Counted from the stretch's first letter, positions 2,847 through 49,571 are shown. The stretch: DNA of 64,000 bases from Escherichia coli (GCF_003018235.1 NZ_CP027437.1); one strand, 5' to 3'. The notes: generated from the sequence alone by a model not told the origin. Numbers and translations are program-made.

Positions 2847-2888
2847 CCCGTAACTTATTTTTGCCAAAATTTTGGATACAGAATAAAT

Positions 2889-3896
2889 ATGTCTCAACTC
2901 AATGATAGTGACATCATCCTTTTTGAGTATAACTTTCATTATCAAAATATAAGATCTAAAAATACTCTTGATATCGCATTTGGTATTGACAGAAATTTTC
3001 TTTTTGGATGTGGTGTAGCCATCGCATCTATTCTATTAAACAATAGCGAAATCTCTTGTGAATTTCATGTTTTCACAGATTATATCAGTGATAAAGACAA
3101 GTTATATTTTTCCGATTTAGCAAAACAATATAATTCAAGAATTAATATTTATGTAATCAATTGTGATAAACTGAAGTCATTACCAAGCACGAAAAACTGG
3201 ACTTACGCAACATATTTTCGATTTATAATTGCAGATTATTTCTATCATAAACATGAAAAAATACTATATCTTGATGCAGATATTGCTTGCAAGGGTAGTA
3301 TTAAAGAACTCTTAGATTATCAATTTTCTCCTAATGAAATTGCCGCAGTTGTAGCTGAAAGAGATGTTGAATGGTGGCAAAATCGAGCCTCGGTATTAAC
3401 TACACCACAGTTAGCTTCTGGATATTTCAATGCTGGTTTTTTACTGATAAATATTGATGAGTGGAATCTAAATAACATTTCGTCAAAAGCTATTGAAATG
3501 TTGCGTGATCCAGATTGGGTAAGTAAAATTACCCACCTTGATCAAGATGTACTGAATGTATTATTGAATGGTAAAGTGAAGTTTATTTCGGGGAAATATA
3601 ATACCCGATATAGTATTAACTACGAATTAAAAGACAAAGTTGATAATCCAGTCAATGATGACACCGTGTTTATACACTATGTGGGACCTACAAAACCCTG
3701 GCATGAGTGGGCTGATTATCCGGTGTCACGTAGTTTTTTGATCGCCAAGGCAGCTTCTCCGTGGAGTAAAGAAGATTTACTTAAACCTGTAAATAGCAAT
3801 CAGTATCGGTATTGTGCAAAACATAAATTTAAACAAAAGCATTATATGGCAGGCATTTTTAATTATTTAAAGTATTATAAAGAAAAATGTTTCTAA
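2889..3896 (+). CDS. LPS outer-core alpha-1,3-glycosyltransferase, GT8 family (WaaI/WaaO-like)
   Basis: 335 aa; GT8 hallmarks (NxxFxxG...YLDADI...DQD...HYxGxxKPW); AT-rich; follows waaP. Confidence 0.75.
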   Translation: MSQLNDSDIILFEYNFHYQNIRSKNTLDIAFGIDRNFLFGCGVAIASILLNNSEISCEFHVFTDYISDKDKLYFSDLAKQYNSRINIYVINCDKLKSLPSTKNWTYATYFRFIIADYFYHKHEKILYLDADIACKGSIKELLDYQFSPNEIAAVVAERDVEWWQNRASVLTTPQLASGYFNAGFLLINIDEWNLNNISSKAIEMLRDPDWVSKITHLDQDVLNVLLNGKVKFISGKYNTRYSINYELKDKVDNPVNDDTVFIHYVGPTKPWHEWADYPVSRSFLIAKAASPWSKEDLLKPVNSNQYRYCAKHKFKQKHYMAGIFNYLKYYKEKCF

Positions 3897-3921
3897 AGAT
3901 TTAAGGTTAAAATAATTCATT

Positions 3922-4629
3922 ATGATATATAATAAAACGATAAACGGATTGAAAGTTTTCATAAAAGATAATGATCCCTTTTATGAGCAAGTTCTGAATG
4001 ACTTTTTAACTTGCAGGGTTAAAACATTAAAAGTTTTTCGTTCTATTGATGATACTAAAGTCATTCTTATTGACACTGCTCGTGGACCTCTTGTACTTAA
4101 AGTTTATGCGCCAAAGCATAAAATGATCGAACGTTTCTTAAAATCTTGCATAAAAAAAGATTATTATGAAAATTTAATTTATCAAACCGATCGGGTACGT
4201 GGTGAAGGCGTTCAATCAATTAATGACTATTTTTTGCTTGCTGAACGTAAAACATTAAATTTCGCGCATTATTATATTATGCTCATTGAGTATATTGAAG
4301 GTGTCGGGTTAAATGAGTATTTGGAAATTTCTGAAGATCTGAAGGATCAATTATCAGAATCGATAAAAGAGCTGCATCAGCATGGAATGGTGTCTGGCGA
4401 TCCTCATAAAGGAAATTTTATAGTATCCGAAAAAGGTTTAAGACTAATTGACCTTTCAGGTAAAAAAACAACCGCTGTTTTAAAAGCAAAAGATCGCATT
4501 GATCTTGAACGGCACTATAATATAAAAAATGAATTGAAAGACTTTGGCTATACATATCTTATATTCAAAAAGAAAATTAAAAAAGTAATCAGGGATGTAA
4601 AAGTCAAACTAGGATTGAAGAGCAAATAA
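3922..4629 (+). CDS. waaY: LPS core heptose(II) kinase
   Basis: 235 aa, small kinase-like protein embedded between two GT8 genes in the waa operon; length and position as for WaaY. Confidence 0.7.
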   Translation: MIYNKTINGLKVFIKDNDPFYEQVLNDFLTCRVKTLKVFRSIDDTKVILIDTARGPLVLKVYAPKHKMIERFLKSCIKKDYYENLIYQTDRVRGEGVQSINDYFLLAERKTLNFAHYYIMLIEYIEGVGLNEYLEISEDLKDQLSESIKELHQHGMVSGDPHKGNFIVSEKGLRLIDLSGKKTTAVLKAKDRIDLERHYNIKNELKDFGYTYLIFKKKIKKVIRDVKVKLGLKSK

Positions 4630-4653
4630 TGATTATGATGAAGGGTAATTAAA

Positions 4654-5667
4654 TTGGATTTTAAACATCTTACTCAATTTAAAGATATAATTGAACTGGA
4701 CAAGCGCCCTGTTAAACTTGATGAACGGGAAACGTTTAATGTCTCATGGGGTATTGATGAGAACTACCAGGTAGGGGCTGCGATTTCAATTGCTTCAATT
4801 CTTGAAAATAATAAACAAAACAAATTTACCTTTCACATAATCGCTGATTACTTAGACAAAGAGTATATTGAATTATTATCACAATTAGCAACGAAGTATC
4901 AAACAGTAATTAAATTATATCATATTGATTCTGAGCCATTGAAGGCGCTACCTCAATCAAATATCTGGCCAGTATCTATTTATTATCGTTTGCTTTCATT
5001 TGATTATTTTTCTGCGCGATTGGATTCATTATTATATCTTGATGCTGATATCGTCTGTAAGGGTTCATTGAACGAGTTAATAGCATTAGAGTTTAAAGAT
5101 GAATATGGGGCTGTGGTAATTGATGTAGATGCTATGCAAAGTAAAAGCGCTGAGCGTTTATGTAATGAGGATTTTAACGGTAGCTATTTTAACTCTGGTG
5201 TAATGTATATTAATTTACGGGAATGGTTACAACAAAGACTAACGGAGAAATTCTTTGATCTATTATCAGATGAGTCAATTATCAAAAAATTAAAGTATCC
5301 GGATCAAGATATTTTAAACTTAATGTTTTTACATCATGCTAAAATATTACCGAGAAAATATAATTGTATTTATACTATAAAGTCAGAATTTGAAGAAAAA
5401 AATAGTGAATATTACACCCAGTTTATTAATGATGAAACTGTCTTCATACATTATACTGGTGTAACTAAGCCATGGCATGATTGGGCGGACTACGCATCTG
5501 CAGATTATTTCCGTAATATTTATAATATATCTCCATGGAGAAATATACCTTATAAAAAAGCTGTTAAAAAACATGAGTACAAAGAAAAATATAAACACTT
5601 GCTTTACCAGAAAAAATTTCTCGATGGTGTTTTTACAGCAATTAAATATAATGTTATGAAAGGTTAA
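4654..5667 (+). CDS. LPS outer-core glycosyltransferase, GT8 family (WaaJ/WaaT-like)
   Basis: 337 aa, paralogous to the 2889-3896 product (same YLDADI / DQD / KPWH motifs). No in-frame ATG after the upstream stop; TTG at 4654 preceded by AAGGG Shine-Dalgarno. Confidence 0.7.
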   Translation: MDFKHLTQFKDIIELDKRPVKLDERETFNVSWGIDENYQVGAAISIASILENNKQNKFTFHIIADYLDKEYIELLSQLATKYQTVIKLYHIDSEPLKALPQSNIWPVSIYYRLLSFDYFSARLDSLLYLDADIVCKGSLNELIALEFKDEYGAVVIDVDAMQSKSAERLCNEDFNGSYFNSGVMYINLREWLQQRLTEKFFDLLSDESIIKKLKYPDQDILNLMFLHHAKILPRKYNCIYTIKSEFEEKNSEYYTQFINDETVFIHYTGVTKPWHDWADYASADYFRNIYNISPWRNIPYKKAVKKHEYKEKYKHLLYQKKFLDGVFTAIKYNVMKG

Positions 5668-5675
5668 TACTCGAG

Positions 5676-6818
5676 ATGGTTGATAAAATAATATTTACAG
5701 TCACTCCTATTTTTTCAATTCCTCCTCGCGGAGCGGCCGCTGTTGAAACGTGGATGTATCAGGTTGCTCAGCGTACCAATTTCCCAAATCGTATTGTTTG
5801 TATCAAGAATCCAGGATACTCAAATTACACCTTTGTTAATGATAATTGTAGTATTCATAGGGTTGGATTCAGTCGCATATATAAGCGGTTATTTCAAAAA
5901 TGGACAAGACTTGATCCTCTTCCATATTCACAGAGAATATTGAATATTGCCCATGATTTTCCTATAACGAAAGAAAGTGTTATTGTAGTTCATAATAGCA
6001 TGAAACTATACACTCAAATTCGTAAGCGAGCTCCTCAGGCAAGAGTGGTTATTCATATGCATAATGCATTTGAACCAAAATTGCTTGAGCAAAATGTTAA
6101 AATGATAGTGCCTAGTTTATACTTGAAAAAGTATTACCAATCTTATTTAGCAAATGCAGATATTGAGATTGTACCAAATGGAATTGATTTAGAAACCTAT
6201 CAATCTACTTTTCAGCCGATCACTAGAAGCGAACTTAATATCTCCCCTGAAGAGAAAATTATTTTTTATGCTGGGCGTATCGTCCCTGATAAAGGCATAT
6301 TACTGTTGATGCAATCATTCGAAAAATTGGCCGCTGCTCACAAAAATTTAAAATTAGTTGTGATTGGTGATTATACAGAAATGAGTAAAAGTGACAAAGG
6401 TGCATATCAACGCAATGTCAGGGAAATTGCAAAACGTTTGAAGGATCGTTGCATTATGTTAGGAAGCATACCGCCTGAAAATATGCATTGTTATTACCCA
6501 CTGGCGGATTTAGTCGTCATTCCTTCCCAGTTCCAGGAACCATTTTGCATGGTGGCAATTGAAGCTATGGGGGCTGGTAAGCCTGTTTTAGTGAGTACGC
6601 GTGGGGGGATGACGGAATTTGTCAAAGAAAATACTACGGGATTCCATTTAAAAGAACCTATGACTGCAGACTCCATAAGCAGCGATATTTTAAAAACGTT
6701 AGCGAATCCTGAATTAACAGCAGTTGCAAAGCAAGGTCAGGATTTTGTGTTTGATCACTACAGTTGGGATGGCGTAACTCAAAGATTTGAAGAGGTTATT
6801 CATAATTGGTTTGAATAA
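5676..6818 (+). CDS. LPS core glycosyltransferase (GT-B fold, GT4-like), last gene of the waaQ operon
   Basis: 380 aa; C-terminal region resembles GT4 retaining glycosyltransferases (EPFCMVAIEAMGAGKPVL); lies where strain-specific outer-core transferases sit. Confidence 0.65.
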   Translation: MVDKIIFTVTPIFSIPPRGAAAVETWMYQVAQRTNFPNRIVCIKNPGYSNYTFVNDNCSIHRVGFSRIYKRLFQKWTRLDPLPYSQRILNIAHDFPITKESVIVVHNSMKLYTQIRKRAPQARVVIHMHNAFEPKLLEQNVKMIVPSLYLKKYYQSYLANADIEIVPNGIDLETYQSTFQPITRSELNISPEEKIIFYAGRIVPDKGILLLMQSFEKLAAAHKNLKLVVIGDYTEMSKSDKGAYQRNVREIAKRLKDRCIMLGSIPPENMHCYYPLADLVVIPSQFQEPFCMVAIEAMGAGKPVLVSTRGGMTEFVKENTTGFHLKEPMTADSISSDILKTLANPELTAVAKQGQDFVFDHYSWDGVTQRFEEVIHNWFE

Positions 6819-6820
6819 AT

Positions 6821-6856
6821 AAAAAGGCCGCATTATGCAGCCTTTTTATTTTTTAC
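6821..6856. terminator. Putative bidirectional terminator between the convergent waaQ operon and waaL
   Basis: Imperfect hairpin AAAAAGGCCGCA-TTA-TGCAGCCTTTTT flanked by A/T runs, in the 34-bp gap between the two convergent stops. Confidence 0.4.
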
Positions 6857-8061
6857 TTGTTTTTCATCGCTAATAATAAGCCGGCGTAAACACCTAATAA
6901 ATTTGGTTCAATTTGTTCTACGTTTCCACGGATAACAAAATAACCTATAAAAGATAGTAAGATTATATAATATGCATTATATGGTGAGCGGTATTTATTC
7001 TGGACGCCATTTTTTATACACTCTTTCAATATTGCACAGTATAGCATCATAAGACTTACCAGCCCTAATAAACCAGTGCCAAACCAGATGAATAGCGCAA
7101 AATTATGTGGCCCTATTGATTGTCTAAAGGTCCATTCTGGATAATCAACGACACGTTTATTATAGACATCTTTATATGCAACGTTACCGTAACCATAACC
7201 AATAACAGGATTCTCTAATATTAGATCGAGTGCGCTGCCTTGAGTACCATTTGCATAGCGATAAGAACTATTAGTTTGTTGAAGTTTATACGTTAGCTTT
7301 GCGGTCATCTCCTTATGTGTGAAAATAACCGACAATGCAATGATGGAAACCATTACTCCTACTAATAGTAACTTCCATTGTTTAAACATCAGAATCCATA
7401 TTAATCCAATGACTAACACGGAAAGCCAGGCCCCTCTGGATAAAGTTCCTAATATCAGAAAAATAAAAATAAAGCTTAGAACCACAAAAGAAATGCGGTA
7501 TTTTGCTGATTTGATAAGCCAGAGATTTAACAATGCAGGGAATAAAAAGACCATCGAGTCAGAAATGCTACGGTGTCTATAATCTGCGAATGGCATTATC
7601 CCTTGTTGATAGTCCTTATAATAGGCAATCAATTCAGAAAAACAGCGTAAGCCCAACGCACTAATAAATGAGAAGAAAACGATTTTTTCGACATCTTCTC
7701 TTTTCTCGTCTCTCAATATGACTGGTATTGCTATTGTGCATAGTAAAGTATTCTCAATAATAGCTTTGAAAATTTCCTTCATGCTAGCCCCTGCATCAGG
7801 GGATTGAAGAAGTGACAGCAATGCAGCAATAGTTAATATGGCAACACTACCAAAAAGAAATGTTTTAAATAGTGAGAGATAATGTTTTGGCCGTTTGCAG
7901 AGATAGACGATTGTCGTTATTGTCATAAGAATAACGATAAGATGTTTATACCTTGTAATCCCACCCAAAAAATAGGTGGTAATGAATAAGAATACGAGAG
8001 CTCTGTTCCAGTACGCTATCCAGTTTTTTTTCTCGAGAGAGAAAAATAATGTTGAGGTCAT
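6853..8061 (-). CDS. waaL: O-antigen ligase
   Basis: 402 aa, highly hydrophobic polytopic membrane protein, last gene of the hldD-waaF-waaC operon; AT-rich. Confidence 0.75.
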   Translation of the reverse strand: MTSTLFFSLEKKNWIAYWNRALVFLFITTYFLGGITRYKHLIVILMTITTIVYLCKRPKHYLSLFKTFLFGSVAILTIAALLSLLQSPDAGASMKEIFKAIIENTLLCTIAIPVILRDEKREDVEKIVFFSFISALGLRCFSELIAYYKDYQQGIMPFADYRHRSISDSMVFLFPALLNLWLIKSAKYRISFVVLSFIFIFLILGTLSRGAWLSVLVIGLIWILMFKQWKLLLVGVMVSIIALSVIFTHKEMTAKLTYKLQQTNSSYRYANGTQGSALDLILENPVIGYGYGNVAYKDVYNKRVVDYPEWTFRQSIGPHNFALFIWFGTGLLGLVSLMMLYCAILKECIKNGVQNKYRSPYNAYYIILLSFIGYFVIRGNVEQIEPNLLGVYAGLLLAMKNK

Positions 8062-9050
8062 CTTATCTCCGATGTCAACTTATTGGTTATTATTTCAAGA
8101 TTTAAATTTTGAAAAACGGTTTGAGCTGGCAAATCTGCAAGAGACATACTTGTAGAACGACACTCTACTTGATTCTTCCCATACCCACCAATTAATCCAG
8201 GATCGGTTGGTCCATAAACCGTGATATTGGGTCTATCCAGTGCCGCCGTTAAATGGCTTAACCCCGTATCCACCGACACTACAAATTTAGCCCCGGCCAG
8301 CACGCGGGCAACGCCTTCCAGACTCATCTTCGGCAATACTTCAACATAAGCAAATCCTTCCGCCAGTCGTTTCGCCCGTTCTTCCTCATGCGGCGCGCCC
8401 CACGGAAGTTTAATCCGTATTCCTGAATCAGCCAGTAAACCAATCAATTCTCGCCAGTGTTCTTCCGGCCAGTGTTTATCATCTCGGGTTGTTGCATGAA
8501 GAAATACGGCATATTCGCCAGCATCTGTAGGCAGGTTCGTCAGGAAATGCTGTGCGATAGCATAATCGCCCTGGGTTTGTGGTTTGCTATAGCCCAGACT
8601 TTTGGCAAACAGTTCGCGGGTGCGTTCTACGGCGTGCTGCTGTTTTGCAATATGATGCTTACGATTGTAAAACAGGCTGGCTAAAGGTTCGCGAGCGGTT
8701 TGCCAGTCCATTCCATGCTTTACGCCATGCGCCAGACGCGTCACCAGCGCCGCGCTTTTTACCAGCCCCTGAGCGTCGATAACTGCGTCATAGTTCTCTG
8801 CTTGTAGCGCTTCACGAAACGCTTTCCGTTCAGCTTTTATGGGGGCCGAGAACCAGGCTTTACGCCAGCGACGTATTGCCACAGGAATAACTCGCTCAAC
8901 AGCGGCGTGCCAGGAAGGAATTTGTGCGAACCCTTCTTCCACCACCCAGTCAAACTTAATCCCCGGGATTGCCTGCTGGGCATCAGTGAGTGCGGGCAAC
9001 GTATGGAGAACATCGCCCATCGACGATGTTTTAACGATCAAAACCCGCAT
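8058..9050 (-). CDS. waaC: LPS heptosyltransferase I
   Basis: 330-aa ORF starting MRVLIVKTSSMGDVLHTLPALTDA, GT9 heptosyltransferase; between waaF and waaL. Confidence 0.85.
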   Translation of the reverse strand: MRVLIVKTSSMGDVLHTLPALTDAQQAIPGIKFDWVVEEGFAQIPSWHAAVERVIPVAIRRWRKAWFSAPIKAERKAFREALQAENYDAVIDAQGLVKSAALVTRLAHGVKHGMDWQTAREPLASLFYNRKHHIAKQQHAVERTRELFAKSLGYSKPQTQGDYAIAQHFLTNLPTDAGEYAVFLHATTRDDKHWPEEHWRELIGLLADSGIRIKLPWGAPHEEERAKRLAEGFAYVEVLPKMSLEGVARVLAGAKFVVSVDTGLSHLTAALDRPNITVYGPTDPGLIGGYGKNQVECRSTSMSLADLPAQTVFQNLNLEIITNKLTSEIR

Positions 9051-9053
9051 CCG

Positions 9054-10100
9054 TCAGGCTTCCTCTTGTAACAATAGCGCGTTAAGTTCTTCCAGTACGC
9101 GCTGGGGAGTAATGTCGATCAAGCTCTGGTGATAACCCTCCGCAGCGTCACCTTTACGCACTTTGTGATAGCCGGTAATCAGGCGGATCACGCGTGCTTT
9201 ATGGGATAGCGGCGGTGTGAAGTCCGGGCTACTCGGACCATACAAGGCAACCAGCGGACGATTGAGCGCCGCCGCAACGTGCATCAGGCCAGAATCGTTA
9301 GTGACAATGGCTTTACAGGCTGTAATCAGGATAACCGCTTGATCAAGCTGTGTTTCCCCTGCCAGGTTCCGGCACCATGCCTGCTGCTCGGTATTTAAAG
9401 CGGCAAGAATCTCATTGCCCGCTTCATGATCTTTCGCCGAGCCAAACAGAACCACCTGATAACCTTCATCAATCAGCTGCTTTGCCAGCTCCGCATAGTG
9501 GTAGTGTGGCCAGCGTTTTGCCGGACCAAACTCCGCACCCGGGCAAAAGCCAATCATCGGACGTTCTGATGAAAGCGAAAATTGATTACAGGTATATGAT
9601 TTTTCACCTTCGCTCACCTGCAACTGCGGCCATAACAATGGCTGCGGCAGATCTTGTGCTGTACGCATAATGCCTTTGTCATAGGCCAGCGCGACATAGC
9701 GTTCCACCATTAGCGGCCAGGCTTCTTTATCGAGCACGCGTACATCGTTAAGTAAACCGTAGCGCATCTCGCCGCGCCAGCCGGTGCGATGAGGAATACC
9801 CGCGAAGAAAGGCACTAATGCGGATTTGAAGGAGTTGGGTAAGACGTAGGCGCGGTCGTAGCGCTTTTCACGCAGACTATGACCCAGTTTGCGGCGTTCG
9901 CCGATTTCCAGCGCTCCGTGACCGAGAGGCATAGGAATAGCTTCGTTAACTTCCGGCATCCGCGATAATAATGGACGGCACCATGCCGGTGCCATCACGT
10001 CGATTATCGCCTGGGGATAGCGCGCCTGGAGCGTGCGATAGAGACTTTGCGACATCATCATGTCGCCAACCCAAGACGGGCCGATCACCAGTATTTTCAT
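9054..10100 (-). CDS. waaF: LPS heptosyltransferase II
   Basis: 348 aa, MKILVIGPSWVGDMMMSQSLYRTL..., GT9; directly downstream of hldD. Confidence 0.9.
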   Translation of the reverse strand: MKILVIGPSWVGDMMMSQSLYRTLQARYPQAIIDVMAPAWCRPLLSRMPEVNEAIPMPLGHGALEIGERRKLGHSLREKRYDRAYVLPNSFKSALVPFFAGIPHRTGWRGEMRYGLLNDVRVLDKEAWPLMVERYVALAYDKGIMRTAQDLPQPLLWPQLQVSEGEKSYTCNQFSLSSERPMIGFCPGAEFGPAKRWPHYHYAELAKQLIDEGYQVVLFGSAKDHEAGNEILAALNTEQQAWCRNLAGETQLDQAVILITACKAIVTNDSGLMHVAAALNRPLVALYGPSSPDFTPPLSHKARVIRLITGYHKVRKGDAAEGYHQSLIDITPQRVLEELNALLLQEEA

Positions 10101-10109
10101 GCAGAGCTC

Positions 10110-11042
10110 TTATGCGTCGCGATTCAGCCAGGCCATGTATTCCGTTACACCTTCAGCAACGGTTTTGAACGGTTTATCGTAACCCGCCGCGCGCAGATTC
10201 GTCAGATCTGCCTGAGTGAACGCCTGGTAGCGGCCTTTCAGTTTATCCGGGAACGGAATGTATTCGATCTGGCCTTTCTTGTGATAAGCCAGCGTAGCAT
10301 CGGCTACCGCCTGGAAGGATTCCGCACGACCGGTGCCGAGGTTGAAGATGCCGGAAACGCCATTTTCCAGGAACCACAGGTTTACATCTGCCACGTCGCC
10401 TACGTAAACGAAGTCGCGTTTGAAGTTCTCGCTACCTTCAAACAGCTTCGGCGATTCACCGTTGTTAAGCTGAGTGTTGAGATGGAAAGCGACGCTCGCC
10501 ATGCTGCCTTTATGGCCTTCACGCGGTCCATAAACGTTGAAATAGCGGAAGCCAACAATCTGCGAGTTCGCTTCTGGCAGGATTTGACGAACATATTCAT
10601 CAAACAGGAATTTTGAGTAACCGTAGACGTTCAACGGTTTTTCGTACTCGCGGGATTCAATAAAGTCGGAGGTGCGACCGCCGTAAGTGGCCGCGGAAGA
10701 GGCATACAGGAACGGGATTTCGCGTTCCAGACAGTAGTGCAGCAGCTCTTTGGAGTATTGATAGTTGTTATCCATCATATACTTGCCATCCCACTCGGTG
10801 GTGGAAGAGCATGCGCCTTCGTGGAAAATCGCTTCGACATCACCGAACTCTTCGCCAGCCATAATCTGGATCAGGAAGTCTTCCTTATCCATATAGTCCG
10901 CGATATCCAGATCCACCAGGTTCACAAACTTGGTGCCGTCTTTCAGGTTGTCCACCACCAGAATATCGGTGATGCCTTTATCATTCAGGGCCTTAACGAT
11001 GTTGCTGCCGATAAAGCCCGCGCCGCCGGTAACGATGATCAT
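10110..11042 (-). CDS. hldD: ADP-L-glycero-D-manno-heptose 6-epimerase
   Basis: 310 aa, N-terminal Rossmann motif [16 protein letters not shown]; first gene of the hldD-waaF-waaC-waaL operon. Confidence 0.9.
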
Positions 11043-11330
11043 AACTGTAACCTTCGAATTATGGAGTCAGAGACAATCTCAGACACGAATGTCTGTAATC
11101 ATACCATCACATCCGAATCCCTTCAGCCCTTTACATAGAGGTGCAAGGATGCTAATTGCAACAAACTAGTTTGGGTTTTAGCTAGTCCTTCATGGCGGAT
11201 GTTGGTTTTGTATGTGAATAGTGCTTTAGTATCAATATTCCGATGTATGATAAATAACGGAAGCATTTGAATGGATAATATACAGTATACATTCTGTTAA
11301 TATTTATGATATAATTCTTTTTTTATATTA

Positions 11331-12203
11331 ATGGTCTTATTAGTAATGAAATCATCCACCACAATTATCACTGCATATTTTGACATTGGTAGAGGGGATT
11401 GGACTGCTAATAAAGGGTTCCGTGAAAAACTAGCTCGTTCAGTTGATGTTTATTTTAGTTACTTTGAGCGTCTGGCCGCACTTGAAAATGAGATGATTAT
11501 TTTCACTTCTCCCGATTTGAAACCAAGGGTTGAAGCGATTCGCAACGGAAAACCAACAACGGTTATCGTTATCGATATAAAAAAGAAATTTAGATATATC
11601 AGAAGTCGTATCGAAAAAATTCAAAAAGATGAGTCGTTTACAAATAGACTTGAGCCTCGACAATTAAAAAACCCAGAGTACTGGTCACCAGAGTATGTTT
11701 TGGTATGTAACCTTAAGGCCTATTTTGTAAATAAAGCTATCAACATGGGCTTAGTGAAAACTCCTCTTGTTGCGTGGATAGATTTTGGCTATTGCCGTAA
11801 GCCAAATGTAACTCGAGGATTGAAAATTTGGGATTTCCCATTTGATGAAAATAAGATGCATCTTTTCACTATAAAAAAAGGGCTTACTGTCACATCTCAA
11901 CAACAGGCTTTTGATTTCATGATTGGCAATCATGTATATATTATTGGTGGCGCAATTGTTGGTTCACAGCATAAATGGAAAGAATTCTATAAATTAGTTC
12001 TGGAAAGTCAAAAAATAACCCTAAACAATAACATTGTGGACGATGACCAGGGCATCTTTGTCATGTGCTATTACAAACGTTCCGATCTCTTCAACCTAAA
12101 CTATCTGGGGAGAGGAAAATGGTTCGATTTGTTTCGCTGCTTCAGGAGTAACACTTTAGGGGCAAAAATGCAGGCGCTGAGAATTTTCCTTTCAAGAAAA
12201 TAG
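11331..12203 (+). CDS. htrL: HtrL/YibB-family protein (LPS-associated, AT-rich gene)
   Basis: 290-aa AT-rich ORF between hldD and kbl, the K-12 position of htrL (yibB). Start uncertain: the ATG at 11346 (MKSSTTIITAYF) is an alternative. Confidence 0.6.
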   Translation: MVLLVMKSSTTIITAYFDIGRGDWTANKGFREKLARSVDVYFSYFERLAALENEMIIFTSPDLKPRVEAIRNGKPTTVIVIDIKKKFRYIRSRIEKIQKDESFTNRLEPRQLKNPEYWSPEYVLVCNLKAYFVNKAINMGLVKTPLVAWIDFGYCRKPNVTRGLKIWDFPFDENKMHLFTIKKGLTVTSQQQAFDFMIGNHVYIIGGAIVGSQHKWKEFYKLVLESQKITLNNNIVDDDQGIFVMCYYKRSDLFNLNYLGRGKWFDLFRCFRSNTLGAKMQALRIFLSRK

Positions 12204-47977: not shown

Positions 47978-47981
47978 TGTG

Positions 47982-48020
47982 AAAGGCAGGCAACGTTAAT
48001 AGTTGTCTGCCTTTGTTTTA
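47982..48020. terminator. Putative bidirectional terminator between convergent aldB and the 359-aa nuclease-like gene
   Basis: AAAGGCAGGCAAC-gttaata-GTTGTCTGCCTTT (13-bp stem, 1 mismatch) followed by a T-rich run. Confidence 0.5.
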
Positions 48021-49097
48021 GTTGTATAAAGCGGCAGTCGCTTTTAACTCATCGCTGAAAGAATAAATATCATCGAGAGATTCAATAGGATGGCGGGTTT
48101 CGTTTTTCTCTAAGTCAAATAAACCAATATATTTTTGATTTCGATTGAAATGTAATCTACAGAGTGGCTTTCGATTATTGTCATCTACAAGTATACCAAA
48201 ATAGCTTTTTGTATCTCTGTGGACTATTCGTGGTGCATCAAGCACTACGCGAACTATAGCTTTAACAATATGAAATCCTTCAAGTTCCTCCATAGTAGTA
48301 GCAATATCGGTTTCTTCTTTATTAATACATTCTACTTCCTCATTGTGTGAATTCGAATCAATTACAGATAATGACCCACCACCTATTGCCGATTTCAATC
48401 TTTCGTTTATTTGAGAGTTAATATATTGATTGGCAGCTTTCTTTGTTAATTTTGCAAACGTATCTTTTACCTTTTGTGTTAACATACCTTCATAAATTCT
48501 TGCTGCAAAGAATTTTACAAAATCCTCTTCAGGATTATTCATTTGTGCATGGAGAACTTTTTTAATTAAACTAACATATTTTAATTCACCTGCAGCATTA
48601 ATTATTGATTCCAAATCAAATGCTGATTTAGTAAGCTTCTTTATCTCGGGAACAACTGTTTCATCTAAGTCAAGTAGATCTATCTCAAGAAATGGTTTTT
48701 CATCCATTTTATTAGGTGCTTCTAAATCAGTAAAAAATTTATAAACTTGTCCATTGGTTAGAATAGATATTCTTGCATTTGTTACATGAAAGTATCGAAA
48801 AAGCTGTGAAGCATGATTTATATTTAGAGGATCGCCAATTTTTTTGCATTCAATGAGAATCTGAACCTCGCTATTTTTTAAGATTGCATAGTCAATCTTT
48901 TCACCTTTCTTCGTTCCAATATCGCATACAAACTCTGGGATAACTTCGGTAGGATCAAAGACATCATAACCTAACACATTGTTAATGAACGGCATTACGA
49001 AAGCATTTTTGGTAGCTTCCTCCGTTTCAATGACTCCGGCTTGTTGTTTTATTTTTGCGGATAATGAATTCAGCTTATCTATAAACTCCATAGACAT
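48018..49097 (-). CDS. Hypothetical protein with N-terminal HsdR_N-like PD-(D/E)xK nuclease domain and an uncharacterised C-terminal domain
   Basis: 359 aa; AAGGAG Shine-Dalgarno 6 nt upstream; N-terminus has the HsdR_N pattern (TEEATKNAFVMPFINNVLGYD, then IDYAIL ... ILIECKK as D...ExK); gene is markedly AT-rich. Confidence 0.6.
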   Translation of the reverse strand: MSMEFIDKLNSLSAKIKQQAGVIETEEATKNAFVMPFINNVLGYDVFDPTEVIPEFVCDIGTKKGEKIDYAILKNSEVQILIECKKIGDPLNINHASQLFRYFHVTNARISILTNGQVYKFFTDLEAPNKMDEKPFLEIDLLDLDETVVPEIKKLTKSAFDLESIINAAGELKYVSLIKKVLHAQMNNPEEDFVKFFAARIYEGMLTQKVKDTFAKLTKKAANQYINSQINERLKSAIGGGSLSVIDSNSHNEEVECINKEETDIATTMEELEGFHIVKAIVRVVLDAPRIVHRDTKSYFGILVDDNNRKPLCRLHFNRNQKYIGLFDLEKNETRHPIESLDDIYSFSDELKATAALYN

Positions 49098-49571
49098 TAT
49101 AACTCCTTTTATATATATTTAATAAAAATGCGTTTTATAAAAATATAGAAAATATTTATATATTAACGCGTTATCATTGGTCATAGTTAATGTATAACAC
49201 ACAAAAAATAATGTTTGCACATTGTAAATACAATGGTGAAACAAACTTGATATTTATCAAGAAAATAAAACAATGTCTTTTATTGGTTGTTTTAAACGTT
49301 CAATGAATACGAGTTGGAGCTATAGCAAGACTAGCTTCGATATCGCATGGATAATCTAATACAGATTTTTTAACACCTAATACTATGAGTTATATGTAAA
49401 TTGCGAGCATCCTCGCATCTTTTCAACAAGTTACTGCACACCGTTATTCTCCTTCCGAGCGGCATTCCTGAGTCAACTTTATCCCCCTGACGGCCCATAT
49501 AAATCGCGCTATCGTGATTGTTATCGCTAATTGTGTGTGTATCGTGTGTATAATCATGGAAGGGCAGGGAT

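Follow-up and report, generated by a model that had tools for sequence, protein, structure and literature searches.

The window analysed here is a 64,000-nt stretch (64 kb) of Escherichia coli chromosome, and its first 11 kb hold a waa gene cluster in which waaQ-G-P-I-Y-J-D converge on waaL-waaC-waaF-rfaD, arranged as follows:

1–935, + strand: waaQ (rfaQ), heptosyltransferase III, with its 5′ end lost at the window start (NCBIfam PRK10422, 499 bits; PGAP CDS in AF39, a 99.5%-identical genome)
932–2056, + strand: waaG, GT4 glucosyltransferase I for the first outer-core glucose, common to all core types (PGAP annotation)
2049–2846, + strand: waaP, core heptose(I) kinase, final gene of the shared left flank (NCBIfam PRK15123, 481 bits)
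2847–8169: AT-rich, R3 type-specific cassette with waaI-waaY-waaJ-waaD, waaL and the waaC 3′ end (breakpoints from blastn with the R1, R4 and K-12 loci)
2889–3896, + strand: waaI, predicted GT8 UDP-galactose:(glucosyl)LPS alpha-1,3-galactosyltransferase of 335 aa, labelled ‘waaO’ by PGAP (NCBIfam PRK15171 equivalog)
3922–4629, + strand: waaY, core heptose(II) kinase of 235 aa, R3 allele (NCBIfam PRK10359; Pfam WaaY)
4654–5667, + strand: waaJ, second GT8 gene, 337 aa, TTG start (Pfam GT8 and GT8C)
4738–5758: in silico R3 diagnostic amplicon (R3-R to R3-F) of 1,021 bp, both primers with 0 mismatches
5676–6818, + strand: waaD, predicted R3 outer-core GT4 transferase of 380 aa, distinct from rfaD (Pfam Glycos_transf_1; NCBIfam PRK15484)
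6821–6847: putative bidirectional intrinsic-terminator hairpin (A-run, GC stem, T-run; folding) separating the stop codons of waaD and waaL, which converge
6853–8061, − strand: waaL, O-antigen ligase of 402 aa, R3 allele (NCBIfam PRK15487; Pfam Wzy_C)
8058–9050, − strand: waaC, heptosyltransferase I of 330 aa (NCBIfam PRK10964, 634 bits)
9054–10100, − strand: waaF, heptosyltransferase II (NCBIfam PRK10916, 751 bits)
10110–11042, − strand: rfaD (hldD/gmhD), ADP-L-glycero-D-manno-heptose 6-epimerase (PGAP annotation of AF39)

The names waaI, waaY, waaJ and waaD are assigned by orthology. Our ORFs agree in coordinates with the PGAP annotation of AF39, all cassette genes are full length and, just as the original prediction had read from the sequence, waaQ-waaG-waaP are followed by a GT8 gene, waaY, a second GT8 gene, a GT4 gene encoding 380 aa and then a convergent waaL, with the ORFs exactly at the positions predicted. 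The interval 2889–6818 proposed for the divergent outer-core set was correct in its gene positions but too short in extent: in blastn, homology to R1 and R4 stops exactly at 2846, the end of waaP, and homology to other core types picks up again only at ~8167–8170, inside the waaC 3′ end, so that the type-specific segment runs from 2847 to ~8167–8169 and includes waaL. It also takes in the 3′ end of waaC, which overlaps the start of waaL by 4 nt. GC content is 31–38% in the cassette and ~50% in the flanks.

The hairpin between waaD and waaL, first found by eye and then confirmed by RNA folding, has predicted folding energies of −15.7 (+ strand) and −20.2 (− strand) kcal/mol, with z-scores of −6.1 and −6.7, respectively, and 0 of 200 shuffled sequences folding as well, and may terminate transcription from both sides. 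Consensus scans of the cassette gave no excess of promoter-like sites (24 versus 28.6 in shuffled sequence) or of terminator-like sites (3 versus 3.0).

Family assignments for the cassette ORFs were far above chance. Both the 335-aa and the 337-aa protein combine Pfam Glyco_transf_8 and Glyco_transf_8C domains (PF01501 and PF08437; E 8e-74 and 3e-63), with LgtC (1G9R/1GA8; E 6e-18) as the nearest solved structure, and WaaI, at 617 bits, exceeded the 461-bit cutoff of the NCBIfam equivalog for lipopolysaccharide 3-alpha-galactosyltransferase. In an alignment of nine LPS GT8 enzymes, D129-A-D131, D218-Q-D220 and H263 were invariant, the first of these being the DxD motif, intact in WaaI; domains and DxD motif together place WaaI and WaaJ in the retaining CAZy family GT8. 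WaaY matched the RfaY/WaaY profile (388 bits; cutoff 248) and WaaL the RfaL profile (690 bits; cutoff 277), the latter having no solved structure that sequence searches could relate to it at E <= 0.01. WaaD carries the Glycos_transf_1 domain (PF00534) typical of CAZy GT4 and scored 767 bits against 618 for PRK15484; its E-x7-E motif is intact, E288 and E296 being invariant in an alignment with O157 WaaD, R2 WaaK and WaaG, as befits a retaining GT4 enzyme of the GT-B fold.

We then typed the locus in silico, searching the whole 64 kb with the nine LPSTyper primers of Trofimova et al. 2025 (PMC13293308). Only R3-F (5739–5758, − strand) and R3-R (4738–4760, + strand) matched, with 0 mismatches each, and their product equals in size the published 1,021-bp waaJ-waaD R3 amplicon (PMC13293308), while the other seven oligonucleotides (R1, R2, R4 and K-12) found no site with <=4 mismatches anywhere in the 64 kb. 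Core-type PCR had been proposed beforehand as a check, and in this in silico form the R3 pair alone responded. Applied to the comparison loci, the nine primers returned the right type for R1, R4, K-12, R2 and R3, the R1, R2 and R4 loci having themselves been assigned to type by primers and gene content, not by chemistry.

Protein comparisons gave the same answer. O157:H7 and F653 are R3 core strains (PMC13293308, PMC9927288), and full-length tblastn identities to O157:H7 were 99.1% for WaaI, 98.7% for WaaY, 98.2% for WaaJ, 99.5% for WaaD and 98.5% for WaaL, with the same gene order and orientation. The title of Kaniuk et al. 2004 is a further literature source for the R3 status of these strains. 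The O157 protein 98.2% identical to WaaJ is named by PGAP UDP-glucose--(galactosyl) LPS alpha1,2-glucosyltransferase. Against their nearest R1, R2, R4 or K-12 counterparts, the cassette proteins reached only 35–58% amino acid identity in tblastn (WaaI <=58%; WaaY 52–57%; WaaD 57% to R2 WaaK; WaaL 51.5% to R2 WaaL), and WaaL gave no detectable tblastn match to R1, R4 or K-12 WaaL. Better matches to one of these loci than to R3 had been named in advance as the outcome that would overturn the original prediction, which had likened the gene order to the waaI-waaY-waaJ-waaD of the R3 locus; with R3 best throughout and no other type above 58%, that reading is borne out. In the reverse direction, reciprocal tblastn over the whole 64-kb window detected no orthologue of R1 WaaV, WaaW or WaaT, of R4 WaaX, or of K-12/R2 WaaS, WaaB, WaaZ, WaaU or WaaK, nor any of the R1, R4 or K-12 WaaL, and the genes of other types produced just paralog- or homolog-level matches (32–57%) to waaI, waaJ, waaD or waaH. 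Comparison with the R3 prototype F653 covered ~700 nt of published primer sequence only: its knockout-primer arms (PMC9927288) map at 95–100% identity to the 5′ and 3′ ends of waaI, waaJ, waaD and waaG, for example at 2812–2891 and 3955–3876 for the waaI knockout and at 5694–5658 and 6780–6813 for waaD.

In a megablast search of 5426 complete E. coli genomes with 2889–8061, this 5.2-kb block was found at 100% coverage and 96–99.8% identity in 1363, O157:H7 and O111 strains among them; this share of 25.1% is near the published R3 frequency of 25.8% (PMC13293308). Gene content and order, identity to O157:H7 and to the F653 primers, the diagnostic PCR product and the lack of genes of other types all point the same way, with nothing in the sequence to the contrary, and the region is almost certainly a canonical, intact R3-type waa locus. 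It is known biology, a typical copy of one of the five textbook E. coli core types.

The R3 core structure is Glc-alpha1,2-Glc-alpha1,2-[GlcNAc-alpha1,3]Gal-alpha1,3-Glc. By orthology with O157:H7 and F653, WaaG would transfer the first glucose onto the inner-core heptose, after which WaaI would be expected to add the alpha-1,3-galactose and WaaJ an alpha-1,2-glucose, the likely site of O antigen ligation; WaaD, on orthology and the literature, may then cap the WaaJ-added glucose with a further alpha-1,2-glucose. WaaP and WaaY are predicted to phosphorylate heptose I and heptose II respectively, and WaaL, which matches the R3 allele, would ligate the O polysaccharide. The three outer-core transferases are all retaining enzymes by family (GT8 and GT4), in keeping with an R3 outer core linked entirely in alpha and with the lack of an inverting GT2 or GT25 gene such as those of R1 (waaV) and R4 (waaX). 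For R3, waaI has been assigned to the HexII galactose, waaJ to the HexIII glucose and WaaD to the glucose substituent on HexIII (PMC9927288, citing Kaniuk et al. 2004).

There is disagreement over which sugar WaaD adds: its PGAP/NCBIfam label is N-acetylglucosaminyltransferase. The abstract of the 2004 Kaniuk report is said to call it a glucosyltransferase. A waaD mutant was interpreted as being without GlcNAc (PMC3184986), whereas WaaD is a glucosyltransferase in PMC9927288.

The GlcNAc residue of the R3 structure bears on a further reading, in which the genotype is R3 but the core is incomplete, the alpha-1,3-GlcNAc branch on the galactose being missing because the strain may not carry WabB. 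That WabB is the GlcNAc transferase is reportedly a finding of Kaniuk et al. A full R3 core would need wabB, a gene located outside the waa locus on large virulence plasmids and absent within the 64-kb window, as are its operon partners (pO157 p79, p81 and p82); the sole wabB match in the window reflects GT4 paralogy to waaD, at 24% identity. Among the complete genomes, wabB occurs in 548 of 5426 and lies on plasmids at 547 of its 550 places, so that, set against the 1363 genomes with an R3 locus, at most ~40% of the latter can carry it. Carriers among the matches listed were mostly O157, O111, O121 and O145, while the closest relatives of the window, none of them of a recognised EHEC serotype, comprise human isolates and a human rectal swab, faecal isolates from chicken and pig, and a sample taken outdoors at a veterinary site. 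Against this, the 64 kb of the window are chromosomal and silent on plasmids, where wabB normally sits. We regard the loss of the branch as a serious possibility, although we lean somewhat against it.

Very improbable is a hybrid R3 locus, or one altered in function, in which recombination, or the 2–6 substitutions per protein relative to O157:H7, changed transferase or ligase specificity to give a new core. R2/K-12 hybrid loci are on record in E. coli (PMC13293308), and the allele in the window is a minority one, only 5 of the 1363 R3 loci being >=99% identical to it over the cassette and most ~98.5%. The 197 differences from O157 are nevertheless evenly spread over 12.3 kb, with 1–17 in each 500 bp, whether in the cassette or in its flanks; this absence of SNP clustering led us to reject a mosaic structure and points to ordinary lineage divergence. 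The full-length genes are collinear with O157:H7, none being extra or missing, the GT8 and GT4 catalytic motifs are intact, and each of the five cassette proteins exactly matches E. coli proteins on 21–581 contigs apiece, their sequences thereby recurring on tens to hundreds of contigs. It is likewise very doubtful that this allele, ~1.5% diverged from the predominant O157-like one, with 2–6 substitutions each in WaaI, WaaJ, WaaD and WaaL and possibly wabB-free, would make the outer core, or the O-antigen acceptor preference, slightly different from that of canonical R3. That the locus is K-12, R1, R2 or R4, with an R3 likeness merely of superficial gene order, we consider effectively ruled out by primers, protein identity and reciprocal tblastn: homologues of the GT8 and WaaY genes do occur in every core type, and WaaD and WaaL do resemble their R2 counterparts, but at identities far below the 98–99.5% to O157:H7, and waaL is convergent here whereas in R1 and R4 it is co-oriented with the waaQ operon.

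The practical value of the canonical R3 assignment is limited to core type. Core type determines the O-antigen ligase allele, and the outer core is a receptor for many phages and a target of cross-reactive antibodies. The R3 type is over-represented among EHEC and within phylogroups B1 and E (PMC13293308).

Set beside the other known core loci, the window shares its flanks widely. WaaG shares 98.9–99.2% amino acid identity with its R1, R4 and O157 counterparts and 88–90% with those of K-12 and R2, and RfaD is 99–100% identical in all reference loci. R1 and R4 are nearly identical to the window in waaQ-waaG-waaP (99% nt) and also in the waaC-waaF-rfaD flanks, but differ in having three GT8 genes (waaO, waaT and waaW), to which they add GT2 waaV or GT25 waaX as an inverting transferase, and in a waaL that is co-oriented and unrelated to that of the window. 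K-12 resembles it in the rfaD-waaF-waaC flank (98% nt), the convergent waaL and the homologous GT8 and WaaY genes (40–57% aa). As the original prediction held, the outer-core set itself differs: MG1655 has seven genes, waaS-waaB-waaO-waaJ-waaY-waaZ-waaU, between waaP and waaL versus four in the window, which has neither this set, with its waaS, waaB, waaZ and waaU, nor the unrelated K-12 waaL allele. In the K-12 gene list of that prediction, ‘waaI’ and ‘waaK’ are the former names of waaO and waaU. R2, with its Salmonella-type waaK-waaL pair, is alike in the convergent waaL and the terminal PRK15484-family GT4 gene adjoining it; it differs in having wabA, waaB and waaZ, none of which is in the window, in its order (waaI-like, waaJ, waaY) and in its divergent waaQGP alleles (71–88% aa identity). 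Only the R3 locus, as in F653, O157:H7 and Shigella flexneri 2a, has the same genes, order, orientation and diagnostic amplicon; the layout in O157:H7 ATCC 35150 is identical, with 98.4% nt identity over 12.3 kb, and the R3 references differ from the window by alleles only, at 2–6 amino acid substitutions per protein relative to O157.

The ORF map of the window exactly reproduced the layout in the original prediction, which proposed a non-K-12 LPS core type, probably R3, from the genes at 2889-6818:

1-935, +: waaQ, 5' end cut by the window start
932-2056, +: waaG
2049-2846, +: waaP
2889-3896, +: waaI, 335 aa, GT8 LPS 3-alpha-galactosyltransferase (curated HMM, 617 bits against a cutoff of 461)
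3922-4629, +: waaY, 235 aa, RfaY/WaaY (curated HMM, 388 bits)
4654-5667, +: waaJ, 337 aa, TTG start, second GT8 protein (HMM)
5676-6818, +: waaD, 380 aa, GT4, family PRK15484 (curated HMM, 767 bits)
6853-8061, −: waaL, 402 aa, convergent, RfaL/WaaL (curated HMM, 690 bits)
beyond waaL, −: waaC, waaF and rfaD

This gene set is indeed unlike that of K-12, where MG1655 has waaS-waaB-waaO-waaJ-waaY-waaZ-waaU between waaP and waaL; the K-12 list in the prediction gave waaO and waaU under their older names, waaI and waaK. At the waaY-waaJ junction (4627-4656), the waaJ ORF lacks an in-frame ATG, the TTG at 4654 being its sole start past an in-frame stop (4639-4641), and just 5' of it a seven-codon ATG mini-ORF (MIMMKGN, then a stop), read in a different frame, spans the stop of waaY.

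Nine type-diagnostic oligos (PMC13293308) were matched across all 64 kb. Only R3-R (4738-4760, +) and R3-F (5739-5758, −) matched, both perfectly, giving in silico an R3 product of the very length published, 1,021 bp, while the remaining seven had no site in the 64 kb even at four mismatches. Knockout primers based on F653, the R3 prototype strain (PMC9927288), were 95-100% identical to the window and fell where waaG, waaI, waaJ and waaD begin and end; R3-waaI-up, for instance, finishes on the ATG of waaI (2889-2891), and those for waaD lie at 5694-5658 and 6780-6813. 'waaD' has been applied in the literature both to the GT4 transferase gene and to rfaD/hldD (10110-11042): PMC13293308 calls the 'waaD' target of R3-F an ADP-L-glycero-D-mannoheptose 6-epimerase, but the oligo actually lies within the GT4 outer-core gene.

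The comparison loci, typed by the same oligos plus gene content, were R1 (L002; waaO-waaT-waaY-waaW-waaV, waaL co-oriented), R4 (L003; GT25 waaX), K-12 MG1655 (L004), R2 (L005; wabA, waaB, waaZ, waaK) and O157:H7 ATCC 35150 (L006). Best matches were all to R3 and clearly not to K-12, R1, R2 or R4: WaaI, WaaY, WaaJ, WaaD and WaaL were 99.1, 98.7, 98.2, 99.5 and 98.5% identical over their full length to those of O157:H7 (R3), versus best non-R3 matches of 58% for WaaI (an R2 WaaI-like protein), 57% for WaaY, 43% for WaaJ, 57% for WaaD (R2 WaaK) and 51.5% for WaaL (R2 WaaL). WaaL had no detectable match in the R1, R4 or K-12 loci, and reciprocal searches of the whole window found no orthologues of WaaV, WaaX, WaaS, WaaB, WaaZ or WaaU. 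By megablast, the block 2889-8061 occurs in 1,363 of 5,426 complete E. coli genomes (25.1%), many O157:H7 and O111 strains among them, with 100% coverage in every case and identities of 96-99.8%. A survey published in 2025 (PMC13293308) assigned R3 to 25.8% of its 4,549 genomes and to 97.9% of EHEC. The window allele is slightly uncommon: at least 99% identity to the window block was seen in only about five complete genomes. Distribution, in-silico PCR, protein comparison and prototype primers, four independent lines, all support the predicted R3 core type at the sequence level.

R1/R4 homology breaks off precisely where waaP stops (2846), restarting at ~8167-8170 within the waaC 3' end, and the type-specific cassette therefore spans ~2847-8169; the predicted interval, 2889-6818, lies within it but is too short, since the cassette takes in waaL. 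GC content is 31-38% in the block versus ~50% in the flanks, AT-richness being characteristic of the variable region in waa loci. With the recombination boundary inside the waaC 3' end (8058-8170), WaaC has 330 aa here versus 319 aa in K-12; the waaC stop and waaL start overlap by 4 nt. Beyond the cassette, the AT-rich, variably present yibB (htrL; 11331-12203) adjoins rfaD in the window, O157, K-12 and some R1 genomes; the R4 and R2 loci compared here lack it, as do the many genomes in which the match stops at 11090.

All genes aligned over their full length with those of O157, and each of the five type-specific proteins exactly matched E. coli proteins, on 21-581 contigs. The GT8 motif DxD (D129-A-D131), D218-Q-D220 and H263 are invariant in nine LPS GT8 enzymes, and the WaaD GT4 motif E-x7-E (E288, E296) is intact. 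A strong hairpin at 6821-6847, bordered by runs of A and of T, separates the convergent waaD and waaL stops and, folding at −15.7 kcal/mol on one strand and −20.2 kcal/mol on the other (z about −6), looks like a putative bidirectional terminator. A mosaic origin was rejected: cassette and flanks alike carry an even scatter of differences from O157 (197 in 12.3 kb), as in ordinary lineage divergence.

Elsewhere in the window, a 1.4-kb segment (47981-49398) lying between aldB and the hicAB toxin-antitoxin pair is absent in AF39, the closest complete genome, and present in 191/5426 complete E. coli genomes. Its single ORF (48018-49097, −, 359 aa) has the nuclease N-terminal domains HSDR_N and HSDR_N_2; in PGAP it is annotated as 'type I restriction endonuclease', there are no adjoining methylase or specificity genes, and PADLOC gave only a weak match to a type IIG restriction-modification model. 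Tandem-like internal repeats (~29590-31566) occur within a large gene for a YadA-like trimeric autotransporter (5.3 kb in AF39); here the alignment of the window with AF39 falls into several offset registers, suggesting that repeat number or sequence varies.

By orthology, and from PMC9927288 (citing Kaniuk et al. 2004) together with general background on the waa pathway, WaaG would add Glc I, WaaI an alpha-1,3-Gal, WaaJ the alpha-1,2-Glc to which O antigen is attached and WaaD a terminal alpha-1,2-Glc. WaaP and WaaY would phosphorylate Hep I and Hep II, and WaaL would ligate the O polysaccharide. For the sugar added by WaaD, sources conflict: PGAP/NCBIfam (PRK15484) names it an N-acetylglucosaminyltransferase, by family with WaaK, and a Shigella waaD mutant was read as lacking GlcNAc (PMC3184986), whereas it is treated as a glucosyltransferase in PMC9927288 (citing Kaniuk 2004), and one partial member of its protein cluster carries the name UDP-glucose--(glucosyl)LPS alpha-1,2-glucosyltransferase.

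The GlcNAc side branch of the full R3 core has been linked to wabB, a homologue of pO157 p80. Neither p80 nor its operon neighbours had a counterpart within the 64-kb window, and wabB (L009:37659-38765) occurred in only 548 of the 5,426 complete genomes, at 547 of 550 places on plasmids, versus 1,363 with an R3 waa locus. Because wabB is absent from the window, mostly plasmid-borne and rarer than R3 loci, waa genotype alone is no proof of the complete R3 structure in this strain; if WabB were the only GlcNAc transferase for the side branch, most R3-genotype strains would lack it.

The R3 assignment is a typing result that bears on phage receptors, antibody cross-reactivity and ligase allele, with no further use, and the locus, intact and standard for the R3 core type, is already known biology. 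GT8 and GT4 are retaining families, and this set fits an all-alpha outer core. R1 and R4, in contrast, have inverting GT2 or GT25 enzymes, which the R3 locus lacks, in line with its retaining-only set.
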